The notes under the pieces: generated by a model
The model's input: only the letters and a program-made list of their open reading frames with translations
Told to the model about the DNA's origin: nothing
The model's database searches: none
In this document: positions 322 to 14,858 of the stretch, one piece after another
How the letters are laid out: the number at the start of each line of letters is the position of its first letter
Numbering within the stretch: the stretch's first letter is position 1
Source: Alphaproteobacteria bacterium
Lineage (GTDB): Bacteria; Pseudomonadota; Alphaproteobacteria; DSM-16000; Inquilinaceae
NCBI GenBank assembly: GCA_036445335.1
Contig: JAZFQW010000020.1
Location: 1 to 26,044 of the forward strand
Direction: 5' to 3'
DNA length: 26,044 nucleotides
Position numbers and translations under genes: made by a program

Positions 322-1558
322 ATGTTCAGCCCATTCGAACGATGGGTCGCGTTCCGCTATCTGCGGGCACGGCGCCGCGAGGGTTTCATCTCGATCATCG
401 CCGGCTTCTCGCTGGGCGGTATCGGGCTGGGCGTCGCCGCGCTGATCATCGTCATGTCGGTCATGAACGGTTTCCGGCAGGAACTGATCGGCACGGTGCT
501 GGGGGTCAGCGGCCATCTCGCCGTCTACGGCCACGGCGGCCGGCTCGAACAGTACGACGACCTGGCCGAGCGGCTACGCGCGCTGGACGATGTCCTGCTG
601 GTCGCCCCGACCGTCGACGGCGAGGCGCTGGTCACCTATGGCGGTTCGTCCACGCCGGCGGCGGTGCGCGGTGTGCGGCCGGAGGATTTCCTAACCCGGC
701 CGTCGGTGGCCGACGATCTGCGGATCCGCGATCCGGCGGACTTCGGCGGCACCGAGGTGATCGCGATCGGCAGCCGCATGGCGCAGCGGCTCGGCGTCGA
801 TATCGGTGACGAGCTGACCCTGATCGTACCGCAGGTCAACGCTACCGCCTTCGGCAGCGTCCCCAGGATGCGCGCCTACCAGATCGCGGCGATCTTCGAC
901 GTCGGATTCTTCGAGTACGACAACCGATTCATATACATGCCGCTGGAGGCCGCGCAGATCCTGTACCGCAAGCGCGAGCAGGTGACCAAGCTGGAGATCT
1001 TCGTGGACGATCTCAACGATCTCGACGGGGCGCGGTCGGCGATACCGCCGGTGATCGCCGGGGCGGGCTGGCTGTGGGACTGGCAAAGCTCGAATTCCAG
1101 CCTGTTCACCGCGCTGCAGGTCGAGCGCAACGTGATGTTCGTGATCCTGACGCTGGTCATCCTGGTGGCGGCGTTCAACATCATCTCGGGCCTGGTGATG
1201 CTGGTGAAGGACAAGGGCCACGACATCGCCATCCTGCGGACTATGGGGGCGACCCGCGGCATGGTGCTGCGGATATTCCTGTTGACCGGCACCTCGATCG
1301 GCCTGGTCGGTACCCTGGCCGGGCTGGCGCTGGCGCTGGCGTTCGTGGAGAACATCGAGACGATCCGGCAGTGGCTGCAGTCGCTGACTGGCACGACGCT
1401 GTTCGACCCGGAGATCTATTTCCTCAGCCAACTGCCGGCCGAACTCGACTGGGGCGAGGTCGCCGCGGTCCTGGCCATTTCGATGGGCCTGTCGGTCAGT
1501 GCGACGATCTACCCGTCCTGGCGGGCCGCCCGGCTCGATCCGGTGGAGGCGCTGCGCT

Positions 1559-1566
<8 letters not shown>
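322..1566 (+). CDS. lolE: Lipoprotein-releasing ABC transporter permease, LolC/E family (single-copy, LolF-like)
   Basis: Starts MFSPFERWVAFRYLRARRREGFISII; has ERNVMF-ILTLVILVAAFNIISGLVMLVKDK-DIAILRTMGA; ends PSWRAARLDPVEALRYE; directly upstream of lolD. ATG 322 preferred over GTG 280. Confidence 0.93.
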
Positions 1567-2257
<691 letters not shown>

Positions 2258-9581: not shown

Positions 9582-10313
9582 ATGCCCGGCATTATTTCCG
9601 AACCCCCGCCGCTGCCGCCAACCCATATCGCGATTATCATGGATGGCAACGGCCGATGGGCACGCGCCCGCGGTCTGCCGCGAACCCTGGGCCATCACCG
9701 CGGCGTCGAGGCGGTCCGGCGCGCCGTGGAGTCGGCGGTCGAGCTGGGCATCGGCCACCTCACCCTGTTCGGGTTCTCCACCGAGAACTGGAGTCGGCCC
9801 GAGGACGAGGTGAGCGAGCTGATGGGGCTGCTGCGCAAGTATCTGCGCAGCGAAATCGCCGAGCTACACAAGAACGGCGTGCGGCTGCGGGTGATCGGCG
9901 ATCGCACGCGCCTGGCGCCCGATATCATCGATCTGATCGGCAATGCCGAGACCCTGACCCGCGGCAACCACACCCTGCACCTGACCGTGGCCTTGAGCTA
10001 TGGCGCGCGCCAGGAGATCACCGCGGCCGCGCGGCAGCTGGCCGAGGAGGTGCGCAATGGTGTGCTGGCGCTCTCGGATCTGGACCTGGACGCCGTTTCG
10101 GCCCGGTTGTTCACCCGCGAACTGCCGGACCCGGACCTGATCATCCGGACCAGCGGCGAGAAACGCATCAGCAATTTCCTGTTGTGGCAGGCCGCCTATG
10201 CCGAACTCGTTTTCGTCGACACCCTATGGCCGGACTTCGACCGCGCCGACCTGGAGCGGGCGATCGGTGAGTATCAACGGCGCGAACGACGCTATGGCGT
10301 CTCTGTCGGCTGA
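9582..10313 (+). CDS. uppS: Undecaprenyl diphosphate synthase (cis-prenyltransferase)
   Basis: HIAIIMDGNGRWA, FSTENWSRP, PDPDLIIRTSGEKRISNFLLWQ, RERRYG. Confidence 0.95.
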   Translation: MPGIISEPPPLPPTHIAIIMDGNGRWARARGLPRTLGHHRGVEAVRRAVESAVELGIGHLTLFGFSTENWSRPEDEVSELMGLLRKYLRSEIAELHKNGVRLRVIGDRTRLAPDIIDLIGNAETLTRGNHTLHLTVALSYGARQEITAAARQLAEEVRNGVLALSDLDLDAVSARLFTRELPDPDLIIRTSGEKRISNFLLWQAAYAELVFVDTLWPDFDRADLERAIGEYQRRERRYGVSVG

Positions 10314-11121
10314 CAGCCCGCCAGGCAACCTGCTCGTTCGCACCCTGTCCGCACTGGTCCTGGGGCCGCTGGTCATCGCGGTCATCTATCTCGGCGGCGC
10401 CGCGTTCGCGCTGCTGCTGGCGGCGACGGGGTTCGTCGCACTGCGCGAGTGGTTCCATTTGGTTGGTGCCGGCGGCCGGGACATCGTGCTGGAGTTGTCG
10501 TTCGGCGCGCTGGTGGCAACGCTGGTCGTGGTCGTGGCCGCCGGCGTCGTCGACGCACTGGTCGTCCTGGCGGCGCTGGCGGCGGCACTGGCCGCCGTGG
10601 TCTCGGGCGCGGGGTACGCCAATCGCGGCATGGTCGCGCTGGGACTGCCCTATATCGGGCTGCCGGTCGCGGTGCTGTTGTGGCTTCGTGGCCAGCCCGA
10701 GGCCGGGTTCGGTATGGTGCTGTGGCTCTTCCTGATCGTCTGGGCGACCGATATCGGCGGATATGCCGCCGGGCGGACGATCGGTGGACCGAAACTGGCG
10801 CCGGTGATCAGCCCAAAGAAGACCTGGGCCGGGCTGGCCGGGGCGGTCGCCGCGGCGGCGCTGATCGGTGGCATCGCCGCCGCGGTCCTCGGCGCCGCGT
10901 CGCCGCTCTGGGCGGCGGCACTGGCGGCCGCCCTGGCCGTCGTCGCTCAAATGGGCGACCTGGCGGAGTCCGCGGTCAAGCGCCGCTTCCACGCCAAGGA
11001 CAGCGGCGCGCTGATTCCCGGTCACGGTGGCATTCTCGACCGGATCGACGGGTTGCTGGCGGCGGCGCCGATGCTGGCGCTGTTCCACGCGACCCTGGGG
11101 GGTGCGATCGGATGGTGGTGA
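10294..11121 (+). CDS. cdsA: Phosphatidate cytidylyltransferase
   Basis: Hydrophobic; WATDIGGY, ISPKKTWAG, KRRFHAKDSGALIPGHGGILDRIDG; ATG 10294 overlaps the uppS end. Confidence 0.95.
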   Translation: MASLSADSPPGNLLVRTLSALVLGPLVIAVIYLGGAAFALLLAATGFVALREWFHLVGAGGRDIVLELSFGALVATLVVVVAAGVVDALVVLAALAAALAAVVSGAGYANRGMVALGLPYIGLPVAVLLWLRGQPEAGFGMVLWLFLIVWATDIGGYAAGRTIGGPKLAPVISPKKTWAGLAGAVAAAALIGGIAAAVLGAASPLWAAALAAALAVVAQMGDLAESAVKRRFHAKDSGALIPGHGGILDRIDGLLAAAPMLALFHATLGGAIGWW

Positions 11122-11354
11122 ACGTGATTGAACCGCCGCCGCGCCGAGTGACCCTACTGGGGTCCACCGGGTCGGTCGGCGGCAACACCGTCGACTTGGT
11201 CAAACGGGTGCCTGTGCGGTTCACGGTCGAGGCGCCGACGGTGCACCGCAACGTCTACCGAGTGGCGCGAATACCCTTAGGGCCCCTGGAAAGCCTGGCC
11301 CAGGTACACGACATAGACAGCGAGGCCCGACGGTGCGCGATCAGTCTTCTGTAA
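11112..11354 (+). pseudogene. dxr: Internally deleted relic of 1-deoxy-D-xylulose 5-phosphate reductoisomerase
   Basis: 80 codons at the canonical cdsA-dxr-rseP position. RRVTLLGSTGSVGGNTVDLV..P.RFTVEA matches the Dxr NADPH-binding N-terminus (GSTGS at 11160-11174). LESLAQVHDIDSEARRCA resembles the Dxr C-terminal helix. Full-length Dxr is about 390-400 aa. Confidence 0.85.
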
Positions 11355-11407
11355 AGCAATTCGTGGTAAAAGCGAACCGGCCCGAACAACCCATACAAGG
11401 ATAATCC

Positions 11408-12535
11408 ATGGCGTTTCTCGATGCTATCTGGACCTACGTCGTCCCCTTCCTGGTCGTCCTGACGGTGTTGGTCTTCGTGCACGAGCTGGGCCACTATCTG
11501 GTGGCGCGGCGCAATGGAGTGCGGGTGGAGGTCTTCTCGATCGGGTTCGGGCGGGAGCTGTTCGGGTTCACCGACCGGGCCGGGACCCGCTGGAAATTCA
11601 GCGCCATCCCACTCGGCGGGTACGTCAAGATGTTCGGCGACGCCAACGCCGCGTCGATGCCCGGTGACGAGCTGCCGGGACTGACCGAGGACGAAAAGGC
11701 GGAATCGTTCCACCACAAGCGCCTCGGCCAGCGTGTCGCCATCGTCGCCGCCGGACCGATCGCGAATTTCCTGTTCGCGATGGTCGCGCTGGCATTCCTG
11801 TTCGCCACGGCGGGTCATCCGTTCGACCCGCCGCCATGGGTGGGTGCCGTCACGCCGGGCAGCCCGGCCGAGGCGGCCGGGATCCTGCCGGGGGACACGA
11901 TCGTGGCCATCGACGGCCAGCCGGTCGGGCGGTTCGGCGATCTGGTCGGGCTGGTGCAGTCCGGCGACGGCGCTCCGATATCCGTCGACCTGCGTCACGA
12001 CGGAACCACCGTGACGTTGACGTTGACCCCGCAGATGACCACGGTCACCAATGCCGACGGCGTGGACGTCCAGGTGCCGCGGATCGGTGTCGTCGTCGAT
12101 AGCGGACCTTACGGATTGCTGCGCTCGGTCCGTCTCGGCGTCACCGAGACGGTGTGGTGGACGGCGTTCACGCTGCGGACGCTGGGTGAGATCATCGTCG
12201 GCGATCGCGGCAGAGAAGATCTCGGCGGACCGATCATGATCGCCCAGATTTCCGGCCAAGTGGCGCAAATCGGGTGGGTCGCCACGGTGTGGTTCATGGC
12301 GGTCCTGTCGATCAATCTCGGTCTGATCAACCTGTTCCCCGTGCCGATGCTGGATGGCGGGCACCTGCTGTACTATGCCGCCGAGGCGGTACGTGGCCGG
12401 CCGCTCGGCGAGCGCGCGCAAGAATATGGTTTTCGCATTGGGCTGGTTTTGGTATTAACGCTAATGGTGTTCGCCACTTGGAACGATCTTGAGCGACTGC
12501 AGGTCGTTGCCTTCCTAAAAGAGCTGATCTTTTAA
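11408..12535 (+). CDS. rseP: RIP metalloprotease RseP (site-2 protease, one PDZ domain)
   Basis: VHELGH zinc motif, AIPLGGYVKM, AAGPIANF, NLFPVPMLDGGH. Confidence 0.95.
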   Translation: MAFLDAIWTYVVPFLVVLTVLVFVHELGHYLVARRNGVRVEVFSIGFGRELFGFTDRAGTRWKFSAIPLGGYVKMFGDANAASMPGDELPGLTEDEKAESFHHKRLGQRVAIVAAGPIANFLFAMVALAFLFATAGHPFDPPPWVGAVTPGSPAEAAGILPGDTIVAIDGQPVGRFGDLVGLVQSGDGAPISVDLRHDGTTVTLTLTPQMTTVTNADGVDVQVPRIGVVVDSGPYGLLRSVRLGVTETVWWTAFTLRTLGEIIVGDRGREDLGGPIMIAQISGQVAQIGWVATVWFMAVLSINLGLINLFPVPMLDGGHLLYYAAEAVRGRPLGERAQEYGFRIGLVLVLTLMVFATWNDLERLQVVAFLKELIF

Positions 12536-12563: not shown

Positions 12564-14858
12564 TTGCGGCACTTCACGTGGCGATGGGGGCGCGTCGGAG
12601 CGTCGATTTGGATTTCGTTCCTGATACTATTGGCGCCGACGGCGACCATTGCCCAGACGCCTGCCGGCGATGTCATCCAGACCATAATCGTTGAAGGCGT
12701 CCAGCGGATCGAACCGGCCACGGTGCGCTCGTACCTGACGATCCGCGCCGGCGACCCGTTCGATCAGGAGGAGATCGACGACTCGCTGAAGAGCCTGTTC
12801 GCCACCGGACTGTTCGCGGATGTCGTGCTGCGCCGGCAGGGGTCCGCCCTGGTCATCTCGGTGGTCGAAAACCCGATCATCAATCGCATCGCGTTCGAGG
12901 GCAATCGGCGGATCGACGACGAAGTCCTGCAGGCCGAAGTGCAGTTGCGCCCGCGTGTGGTCTATACCCGCACCCGCGTTCAGAACGATGTCGCTCGCAT
13001 CCTCGAGGTGTACCGTCGCAGCGGCCGTTTCGCGGCGACCGTCGAACCCAAGGTGATCCAGCTCGAGCAGAACCGTGTCGACCTGATCTTCGAAGTCGAC
13101 GAAGGGCCGTCGACCGGAATCCAGCGGATAAGCTTTATCGGCAACCGGGCGTTCAGTGACTCCAGTCTGCGCGGCGAGATTCAGACCGAGGAAACTCGCT
13201 TTTACGACTTTCTAAGCGCCAACGACACCTACGACCCGGACCGCCTGGCGTTCGATCGCGAACTGCTGCGGCGGTTCTATTTGAAGGAGGGCTATGCCGA
13301 CTTTCGCGTCGTGTCCGCCGTGGCGGAGCTGACGCCCGACCGAGAGAAGTTCTTCATCACCTTCACGATCGAGGAGGGCGAGCGGTACCGGTTCGGCACC
13401 ATCGACATTACGTCGCGGCTCCCGGAACTGGACGTCGGCACGCTGTTCGCCGAGGTCACAAGCGAAGAGGGCGACTGGTACTCCAGTGAAGTCGTGGAGG
13501 AGACTATCGCCAACCTGACCAACGCCGTCGCCGACCGGCAGTACGCCTTCGTCGACGTCCGCCCCGCGGTCACGCGGTCGCGCGAGGAGCGGCTGATCAA
13601 CCTCACCTACGAGATCAACGAGGGCCCGCGGGTGTTCGTCGAGCGGATCGATGTCACCGGCAACGTCCGGACCGTCGACCGGGTCATACGGCGAGAGATG
13701 CAGCTGGTCGAGGGCGATCCGTTCAACGCGTCGAACCTGCGCCGGTCGGAGGCCCGGATCAACAATCTCGGCTTCTTCGAGCGGGTCGAGGTGTCCCAGC
13801 AGCTCGGCTCGACGCCCGACCAGACGGTCATCGTCGTCGACGTGGATGAACGGTCGACCGGCGAGCTGTCGCTGGGCGCGGGGTTCTCCACCACCGAGGG
13901 CGCTCTGGCCAATATCAGCCTGCGCGAGCGCAATCTGCTCGGCCGCGGCCAGGACCTGCGAATTTCGGCAACCGTCAGCGGCACGACCACCCAATTCGAC
14001 CTCAGCTTCACCGAACCCTATTTCCTGGAGAAGGATCTGTCGGCGGGTGTTGACCTGTTTGCGATCACGACCGACAACCAGGATGAAAGCTCGTTCGACG
14101 AATCGTCCATCGGATTCGGCTTTCGCGTCGGCTATCCACTCACCGACCGGTTGCGCCAGACGCTGCGGTATCAGTTGGAGAACCGTGAGATCGAGAACGT
14201 GGGGAGCGATGCCTCGCGGTTCATCCGGGAACAGGAGGGCGAGACTCTCACATCGCTGGTCGGACAACGGCTCGTGTATGACCGGCTCGACAGCCGGATC
14301 AATCCCAGCGAGGGCTTTCTGCTGGAGCTAAGCAACGACCTGGCCGGATTGGGCGGAGATGCCCAATACTTGCAAACCACCGCCGGCGGCAGCATCTTTT
14401 TCCCGTTGTTTGGCGAAACGGTGCTGACGGTCAGCACGGAGGGCGGCTATATCTTCGGCTTCGACGAGGATGTCAGGATCAACGACCGCTTCTTCATCGG
14501 CGGCAACCGGATGCGCGGTTTCGAACGTTCGGGCATCGGCCCGCGCGATGCCGACACCGACGACGCACTGGGCGGGAACGTCTTTGCGCTCGGCACCATC
14601 GAGCTTGCGTTTCCGCTGGGCCTGCCGGAGGAGTTCGGCATACGCGGCCGCGCCTTCACCGATGTCGGGACCCTGTTCGACGTCGATGCCGACGGGCCGG
14701 AGGTGCTGGACGAGGCGTCGCCGCGCGTGTCGGTCGGTGTGGGGCTGTCCTGGACGTCGCCGCTCGGGCCGATCCGCATCGACCTGGGGTTCCCTGTCGT
14801 CAGCGAGGACTTCGACAAGGAAGAAGTGTTCCGCTTCAGTTTCGGCACGAGCTTCTGA
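12564..14858 (+). CDS. bamA: Outer membrane protein assembly factor BamA
   Basis: TTG start gives a signal peptide ending TATIA-Q; POTRA-type repeats, VIRREM, RMRGF lid-lock motif, terminal FRFSFGTSF. Exact start less certain. Confidence 0.94.
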   Translation: MRHFTWRWGRVGASIWISFLILLAPTATIAQTPAGDVIQTIIVEGVQRIEPATVRSYLTIRAGDPFDQEEIDDSLKSLFATGLFADVVLRRQGSALVISVVENPIINRIAFEGNRRIDDEVLQAEVQLRPRVVYTRTRVQNDVARILEVYRRSGRFAATVEPKVIQLEQNRVDLIFEVDEGPSTGIQRISFIGNRAFSDSSLRGEIQTEETRFYDFLSANDTYDPDRLAFDRELLRRFYLKEGYADFRVVSAVAELTPDREKFFITFTIEEGERYRFGTIDITSRLPELDVGTLFAEVTSEEGDWYSSEVVEETIANLTNAVADRQYAFVDVRPAVTRSREERLINLTYEINEGPRVFVERIDVTGNVRTVDRVIRREMQLVEGDPFNASNLRRSEARINNLGFFERVEVSQQLGSTPDQTVIVVDVDERSTGELSLGAGFSTTEGALANISLRERNLLGRGQDLRISATVSGTTTQFDLSFTEPYFLEKDLSAGVDLFAITTDNQDESSFDESSIGFGFRVGYPLTDRLRQTLRYQLENREIENVGSDASRFIREQEGETLTSLVGQRLVYDRLDSRINPSEGFLLELSNDLAGLGGDAQYLQTTAGGSIFFPLFGETVLTVSTEGGYIFGFDEDVRINDRFFIGGNRMRGFERSGIGPRDADTDDALGGNVFALGTIELAFPLGLPEEFGIRGRAFTDVGTLFDVDADGPEVLDEASPRVSVGVGLSWTSPLGPIRIDLGFPVVSEDFDKEEVFRFSFGTSF

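Follow-up and report, generated by a model that had tools for sequence, protein, structure and literature searches.

A collapsed native dxr between cdsA and rseP in an alphaproteobacterial genome and a full-length, hopanoid-linked dxr as its probable replacement

In 18 of 18 family relatives, dxr immediately precedes rseP. At the corresponding position, the metagenome-assembled genome (MAG) studied here carries an open reading frame (ORF) of only 80 codons, and this raises the question of what the ORF is and whether its host has to live without Dxr. A sequence-only reading of the locus had taken the ORF for the decayed remains of dxr and proposed that the entry step of the MEP pathway is missing from its usual locus and is supplied by a relocated dxr or bypassed by another route. 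The window, i.e. the whole stretch of DNA that was analysed (26,044 nucleotides), is one entire contig (C20) of the MAG (G000), a short-read metagenome assembly of 561 contigs and ~3.0 Mb with 92% completeness and 1.8% contamination.

The remnant at the cdsA-rseP position

The gene order around the ORF, as assigned with Pfam, is pyrH, frr, uppS, cdsA, the 80-codon ORF, rseP and bamA. On the plus strand, an intact uppS at 9582..10313 (Prenyltransf, 282 bits) is followed by an intact cdsA at 10198..11121 (CTP_transf_1, 197 bits), the real start of which may be ~70 bp further in. The ORF itself spans 11112..11354 (+); it starts with an ATG in a 10-bp overlap with the cdsA stop and ends with a TAA at 11352-11354. 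The M50 protease gene rseP, with a PDZ domain (11408..12535, +), starts 53 bp 3' of the ORF, and bamA, with Omp85 and POTRA domains (12564..14858, +), comes next in the conserved string. No promoter-like or terminator-like sites were found within 10900-11600.

Translation of the ORF gives 80 amino acids and a stop, and the ORF is the collapsed remnant of the native dxr of this lineage (hereafter, the relic). Residues 13-54 match positions 1-42 of the 129 positions of the Pfam DXP_reductoisom profile at 33.9 bits (cut-off 21.7), and the NCBIfam Dxr models match over the same profile stretch only, at 27-31 bits against cut-offs of 316-515. The Pfam search gave no match to the central catalytic domain PF08436. 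Set against the definition of a DXR-I (TIGR00243, or PF02670 together with PF08436 and PF13288), the relic has an incomplete N-domain, lacks PF08436 and stays at a sub-equivalog score. When it was aligned as a fragment against 20 Dxr proteins in MAFFT, the relic jumped from column 44 to column 358, leaving out columns 45-357 of Dxr. The N-terminal piece (residues 10-52; 11139..11267, +) comprises the beginning of the NADPH-binding Rossmann domain, including the GSTGSVG motif, and is identical to the 20 aligned Dxr proteins at 21-30 of 43 positions (23-30 for the family members). The C-terminal piece (residues 53-80; 11268..11351, +) corresponds in the alignment to the 28 C-terminal residues of Dxr, which form its last helix. 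It shares its stop position with the Dxr of two family relatives, G001 and G017, and 16 of 28 residues are identical to each of them; only 8 of 28 are identical in the MAFFT alignment to the Dxr encoded on another contig of the MAG, C183, which is described below. BLASTP on the relic recovered the same two pieces. The N-plus-C structure that had been read from the sequence is therefore upheld, with the difference that the profile models match the N-terminus only and the C-terminus is seen by MAFFT and BLASTP, not by HMM.

The DNA comparison delimits the deletion. Relic nucleotides 23-155 match the 5' end and nucleotides 173-227 the 3' end of the dxr genes of relatives with 70-76% identity. The alignments break off at relic nucleotides 143-155 and restart at nucleotides 173-175, which defines a junction zone at 11255..11285 (+); the junction earlier placed near 11265-11280 falls within it. 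Compared with the dxr of G001, about 927 bp (~309 codons) are missing, in frame, in agreement with the loss of ~0.9-1 kb that had been estimated, and 71 recognisable dxr codons are kept. The substitution in the VEALT motif pointed out before is also real: the Leu is invariant in 20 of 20 aligned homologues and the relic has Pro (VEAPT). The many A/T-ending codons, which had been taken as a further sign of drift, do not hold up as such, in that the GC3 of the relic (0.80) is not significantly low against 0.85 +/- 0.05 in neighbouring 80-codon windows (19th percentile), and low GC3 is confined to the last 28 codons (0.68).

The source is a short-read metagenome assembly, in which the assembler could have collapsed an existing full-length dxr. 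However, two Logan contigs from two different, independent studies cross the relic gap-free, namely X1 (447 bp, 11102-11548, 13 mismatches) and X2 (267 bp, 11117-11383, 9 mismatches), with the same junction and different SNPs. A protein search restricted to similar lengths yielded five more 80-aa relic alleles with at least 90% identity; the three that were looked up come from three other assemblies, with cdsA before and rseP after the relic where the contig extends. An exact-pattern search of JGI metagenome contigs gave no match to a full-length native dxr allele. The spanning contigs and the further alleles indicate that the deletion is older than the divergence of these strains and no artefact of one assembly, and we ruled out an assembly collapse, to which we assign virtually no chance. 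Together with the relaxed constraint described next, this bears out the earlier preference for old decay. Separately, another truncated Dxr, from a different lineage, was noted on an ENA contig of 578 bp: P0124 (109 aa) has ~48 N-terminal residues with GSTGS, after which the sequence is unrelated. This may be another relic, of independent origin, or the contig may be a chimera.

Strain differences in the relic are nonsynonymous to synonymous at 10:3, compared with 4:9 in cdsA (Fisher p = 0.047, in a small test of 13 + 13 differences), and the first Gly of the GSTGS motif varies among alleles, being G, W or R. An excess of amino-acid-changing differences over the neighbouring gene, as is looked for in a pseudogene, is thus found in the relic, in a small sample. 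As judged from these allele comparisons, the relic is under relaxed constraint, evolves like a pseudogene and is predicted to be non-functional. It is conceivable that the 80-aa ORF has instead been retained for a purpose, either as a spacer whose translation is coupled to cdsA and which shields rseP-bamA from polarity, or as a small protein that has gained a new role. The overlap of its ATG with the cdsA stop and the lack of a terminator in the region would suit such a purpose, and all eight allele readings (some possibly of the same allele) are exactly 80 codons long and free of stops and frameshifts. Against this stands the 10:3 excess of amino-acid over silent changes, which extends to the motif glycine. 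Furthermore, by a rough estimate, the substitutions are so few that the chance of one stop or more is only about one in two, and the open frame consequently carries little weight; 80-codon open frames are also common in DNA of 68% GC. The intact 80-codon frame in all known alleles fits a pseudogene of such age, and we consider retention for a purpose very unlikely.

A full-length dxr next to dxs and hopanoid genes

A search of the whole MAG with the Dxr N-domain gave one further match, on contig C183. The protein (P0002) has the three Pfam domains of Dxr (PF02670, 124 bits; PF08436, 131 bits; PF13288, 150 bits) and lies above the NCBIfam equivalog cut-offs (TIGR00243, 450.5 vs 315.7 bits; NF009114, 465.9 vs 461). 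By these matches, it is an ordinary full-length DXR-I and the predicted working copy. Its gene is immediately upstream of dxs, the only dxs of the MAG, and ispD, ispG and ispH are present as well, so that the MEP pathway, as far as gene content shows it, is otherwise complete and isoprenoid synthesis is predicted to be intact. The proposal of a missing MEP entry step falls with this result, an ordinary full-length dxr elsewhere in the genome being the very finding that its author had named as decisive against it. The genome-wide search that had been suggested also returned a DRL-family homologue, on contig C209, and no HMG-CoA reductase, and the bypasses put forward (DRL, mevalonate, import or an undescribed route) lose their ground together with the gap that they were to fill. 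In particular, a mevalonate bypass was rejected on the result that no HMG-CoA reductase was found in the 92%-complete MAG.

The C209 gene (3372-4748, L115), which lies beside a HerA-like helicase gene at 458-2158 (-), encodes an oxidoreductase of the DRL/DXR-II family. It matches PF21135 (DRL_cat) at 202.8 bits and Brucella DRL (3UPY) at E = 6e-59 over residues 9-440, its full length, and is a member of the DRL superfamily by both domain and full-length similarity. In Brucella numbering, the residues diagnostic of DXR-II are Gly121, Thr229 and His250, and DLO proteins have Ala or Ser at 121 and Pro, Ser or Ala at 229 (PMC3847144). Read from the 3UPY alignment, the C209 protein has Ala121, Ser229 and Ser250, i.e. 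it departs from DXR-II at all three residues and shows, at the level of the alignment, the pattern of the uncharacterised DLO families. The same homologue occurs in 9 of 20 family relatives, each of which also has a canonical dxr, and it therefore does not qualify as a specific substitute. A DRL bypass was ruled out on these two grounds. Replacement of DXR-I by DXR-II (DRL) has been described in Brucella and other bacteria (PMC3847144). The MAG resembles that replacement in having lost the canonical dxr and retained the remainder of the MEP pathway, and in carrying a DRL-family gene, but the substitute here is an ordinary DXR-I homologue.

Whether the C183 copy can serve the relic-bearing organism depends on whether C183 belongs to its genome. 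A mis-binned foreign contig would mean that the dxr and dxs of the relic's host lie outside the assembled part, or that the host uses another route such as the C209 homologue. Contamination of the MAG is estimated at 1.8%, the GC content of C183 is 72.2% compared with 69.0% overall, its Dxr and Dxs are slightly nearer to Kiloniellaceae than to the family, and a DRL_cat homologue is present; the tetranucleotide distance of C183, at the 89th percentile among MAG contigs of its size, carries no weight either way. Nevertheless, C183 starts with a 168-bp, 89%-identity copy of a ~230-bp interspersed repeat that is specific to this genome: 22 long copies, often at contig ends, lie on 21 MAG contigs, C183 and 20 others, and 834 kb of loci from other genomes, the sister hopanoid clusters among them, contained none. 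Both regions also occur in the same sequencing runs (nine common to both lists; X1 at 0.57 and 0.58), and the assembly GCA_044240405.1 contains a relic allele (P0123) together with P0003, a Dxr that shares 90% identity or more with the C183 protein and whose gene is followed by dxs. Moreover, without C183 the MAG lacks both dxs and dxr yet keeps the later MEP steps, and mis-binning would need both genes to fall into the missing ~8% while a contaminant supplied exactly those two. The C209 protein offers little help here, having DLO-type residues at 121, 229 and 250 and being shared with relatives that have a normal dxr. Mis-binning of C183 is in our view highly improbable. Equally improbable is the further reading that the relic's host makes MEP through the DLO-type C209 homologue or an unknown enzyme; if C183 were foreign and the C209 protein active, this would be a new reductoisomerase function for the clade of DXR-II-like oxidoreductases. 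As for the repeat itself (C183:1-213 and C215:1-230, loci L015 and L116), its copies are 80-100% identical and have internal inverted symmetry, and the assembly is probably so fragmented in large part because of it.

The C183 dxr is placed among hopanoid genes. A fused hpnC-hpnD and hpnB lie on one strand of C183, and dxr and dxs on the other, divergent from hpnB. A further contig, C215, carries hpnE, shc (squalene-hopene cyclase) and hpnG, and the only ispH is at the end of this string (C215 and C179, L116). HpnC, HpnD, HpnB, HpnE, the squalene-hopene cyclase and HpnG of C183 and C215 are all above their equivalog cut-offs. From the gene order and the repeat shared by both contig starts, we infer that C183 and C215 are physically joined. 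An apparent second ispH relic on C215 was discarded: C215 and C179 share a 127-bp overlap, and the fragment is the single ispH cut at the contig end. In the MAG, dxs, dxr and ispH, each present once, are thus all around hopanoid genes; a complete genome from this family has dxs, dxr and hpnB megabases apart.

MEP genes such as ispH, dxs and ispG sit within hpn clusters in some hopanoid producers. The arrangement here is similar, with dxr and dxs adjoining hpnB and hpnCD, and ispH adjoining hpnE, shc and hpnG; unlike extra paralogues embedded in hpn clusters, however, dxs, dxr and ispH are sole copies. In the sister loci L107-L110, dxr, ispH and a polyprenyl synthase gene are inside hpn clusters, and dxr is convergent with hpnBCD there, while it is divergent in the MAG. 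We also observed that the fused hpnC-hpnD on C183 (L015:210-1919, -) is a 569-aa ORF with both NCBIfam equivalogs above cut-off, and that hpnC and hpnD are two separate genes in L107, L109 and L110. Another small contig, C228 (2582 bp, GC 73.7%), has a second SQS_PSY gene pair only 44% identical to the HpnC part of C183; this pair may represent an additional set of squalene or phytoene synthases, unless C228 is a foreign contig.

Origin of the C183 copy and loss of the native dxr

The relic and the C183 copy differ in their affinities. The relic is closest to family Dxr proteins (63%, 61% and 61% identity) and is 49% identical to the C183 Dxr; with this value and only 8 of 28 C-terminal residues in common, the two were ruled out as recent duplicates. 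Six window genes are all nearer to the family than to Kiloniellaceae, and the order is reversed for the C183 Dxr (67-70% vs up to 77%). In the maximum-likelihood tree, the C183 Dxr falls into a Kiloniellales-type clade (94/90), nearest to P0010/P0045 and P0033/P0042/P0120, and it shares signatures with Kiloniellales-type Dxr that are absent from the relic and the family. Where the contexts of its nearest relatives could be read, dxr lies beside hpnB, hpnC, hpnD and hpnN, and on one 17-kb contig among them ispH and a polyprenyl synthase gene are also beside it; in other alphaproteobacteria from sediment, the clade of the C183 copy is thus associated with hopanoid clusters. One of these genomes, G038, has only the hopanoid-linked dxr copy and a clean 150-bp cdsA-rseP junction. 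No convincing second dxr was found in any of 18-20 family relatives. On these comparisons, the C183 dxr was most likely acquired horizontally and would represent a xenologous displacement.

The same copy could have arisen without any transfer, by duplication of the native dxr within the lineage to a place beside dxs and the hopanoid genes, followed by deletion of the old copy. A tree that forces the C183 Dxr into one group with the family clade is not rejected by the AU test (p = 0.061; p = 0.23 with a smaller set), and the C183 Dxs and HpnB are at distances typical of the family; Dxs, HpnB and HpnCD of C183 show similar distances to the family and to the putative donors, so that they neither discriminate between the two origins nor point to transfer of a whole block. 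With these AU values, horizontal acquisition is favoured, not established. On the other hand, the best tree puts the C183 copy outside the family, with hopanoid-linked dxr genes of other lineages, and the Kiloniellales-type signatures are found in this copy while the relic and the family are without them. The relic, moreover, is nearer to family Dxr and no nearer to the C183 copy than to any other Dxr, and none of the 18-20 relatives has a second dxr. We regard relocation by duplication as unlikely, although less so than the other alternatives considered here. The reading that we hold to be probable, with good confidence, is that the relic is the deleted, vertically inherited native dxr and that it was replaced by the hopanoid-linked dxr of C183, most likely of horizontal origin.

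As to how the replacement came about, we infer the following order of events. The second dxr would have arrived first, probably by transfer with or near hopanoid genes. Linked to these genes, it would have rendered the native copy redundant, and the native copy then decayed. A single in-frame deletion of ~927 bp took most of the NADPH domain, all of the catalytic domain and most of the C-terminal domain, leaving the first ~52 and the last 28 codons fused, and would then have become fixed. Such a deletion was presumably tolerated because a complete second dxr was already present. An in-frame deletion that leaves a start overlapping the cdsA stop and brings in no terminator may have been favoured at this site, as ribosomes and polymerase could run on into the essential rseP-bamA; the horizontal origin, the order of events and this advantage are all reconstructed from the present state of the genome. 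With ~3.0 Mb at 92% completeness, the MAG compares with 3.0-7 Mb for family relatives (4.1-7 Mb when at least 96% complete). The MAG lineage looks reduced and rearranged, which fits the loss of a redundant dxr. In a reading milder than that of a new reductoisomerase function, but likewise improbable, the hopanoid-linked dxr would be a mobile isoprenoid-supply module that has repeatedly displaced the housekeeping dxr across alphaproteobacterial orders.

Recurrent loss of dxr upstream of rseP and its meaning

Loss of dxr at the cdsA-rseP position is recurrent: the gene is absent upstream of rseP in 12 of 80 rseP loci from species genomes, mostly labelled Stellaceae. In 11 of the 12, cdsA is directly followed by rseP with no relic, and in the twelfth (L045) the contig ends just upstream of rseP. 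The dxr-less loci are L020, L023, L026, L038, L042, L045, L051, L062, L064, L069, L083 and L096. The MAG is like this Stellaceae subset and G038 in that the canonical dxr position is empty, but where these show no trace of the gene, 71 dxr codons are still readable in the MAG. This still-legible remnant is the sole special feature of its locus.

Displacement of a gene by a xenologue or paralogue, with a pseudogene remnant left in place, is a general and well-described mode of bacterial genome evolution. The present case follows it in that a second homologous copy elsewhere takes over and the resident copy decays where it stands. It differs from the general case in the tidy in-frame fusion of N- and C-terminal ends within an essential gene string, fixed across several strains, and this fixation makes the intermediate state directly visible. 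The finding is accordingly an ordinary gene replacement caught midway and not new biochemistry.

For the organism, this removes a false lead, as it is not missing Dxr. For annotation, it serves as a warning that proteins of 80 aa called 'DXP reductoisomerase' in these MAGs are relics. In addition, the hopanoid linkage of the C183 copy is a modest piece of evidence on how MEP genes come to be joined to terpenoid clusters, and the locus as a whole offers a clean natural example of the replacement of an essential gene, in which the dead native copy can still be read in place.
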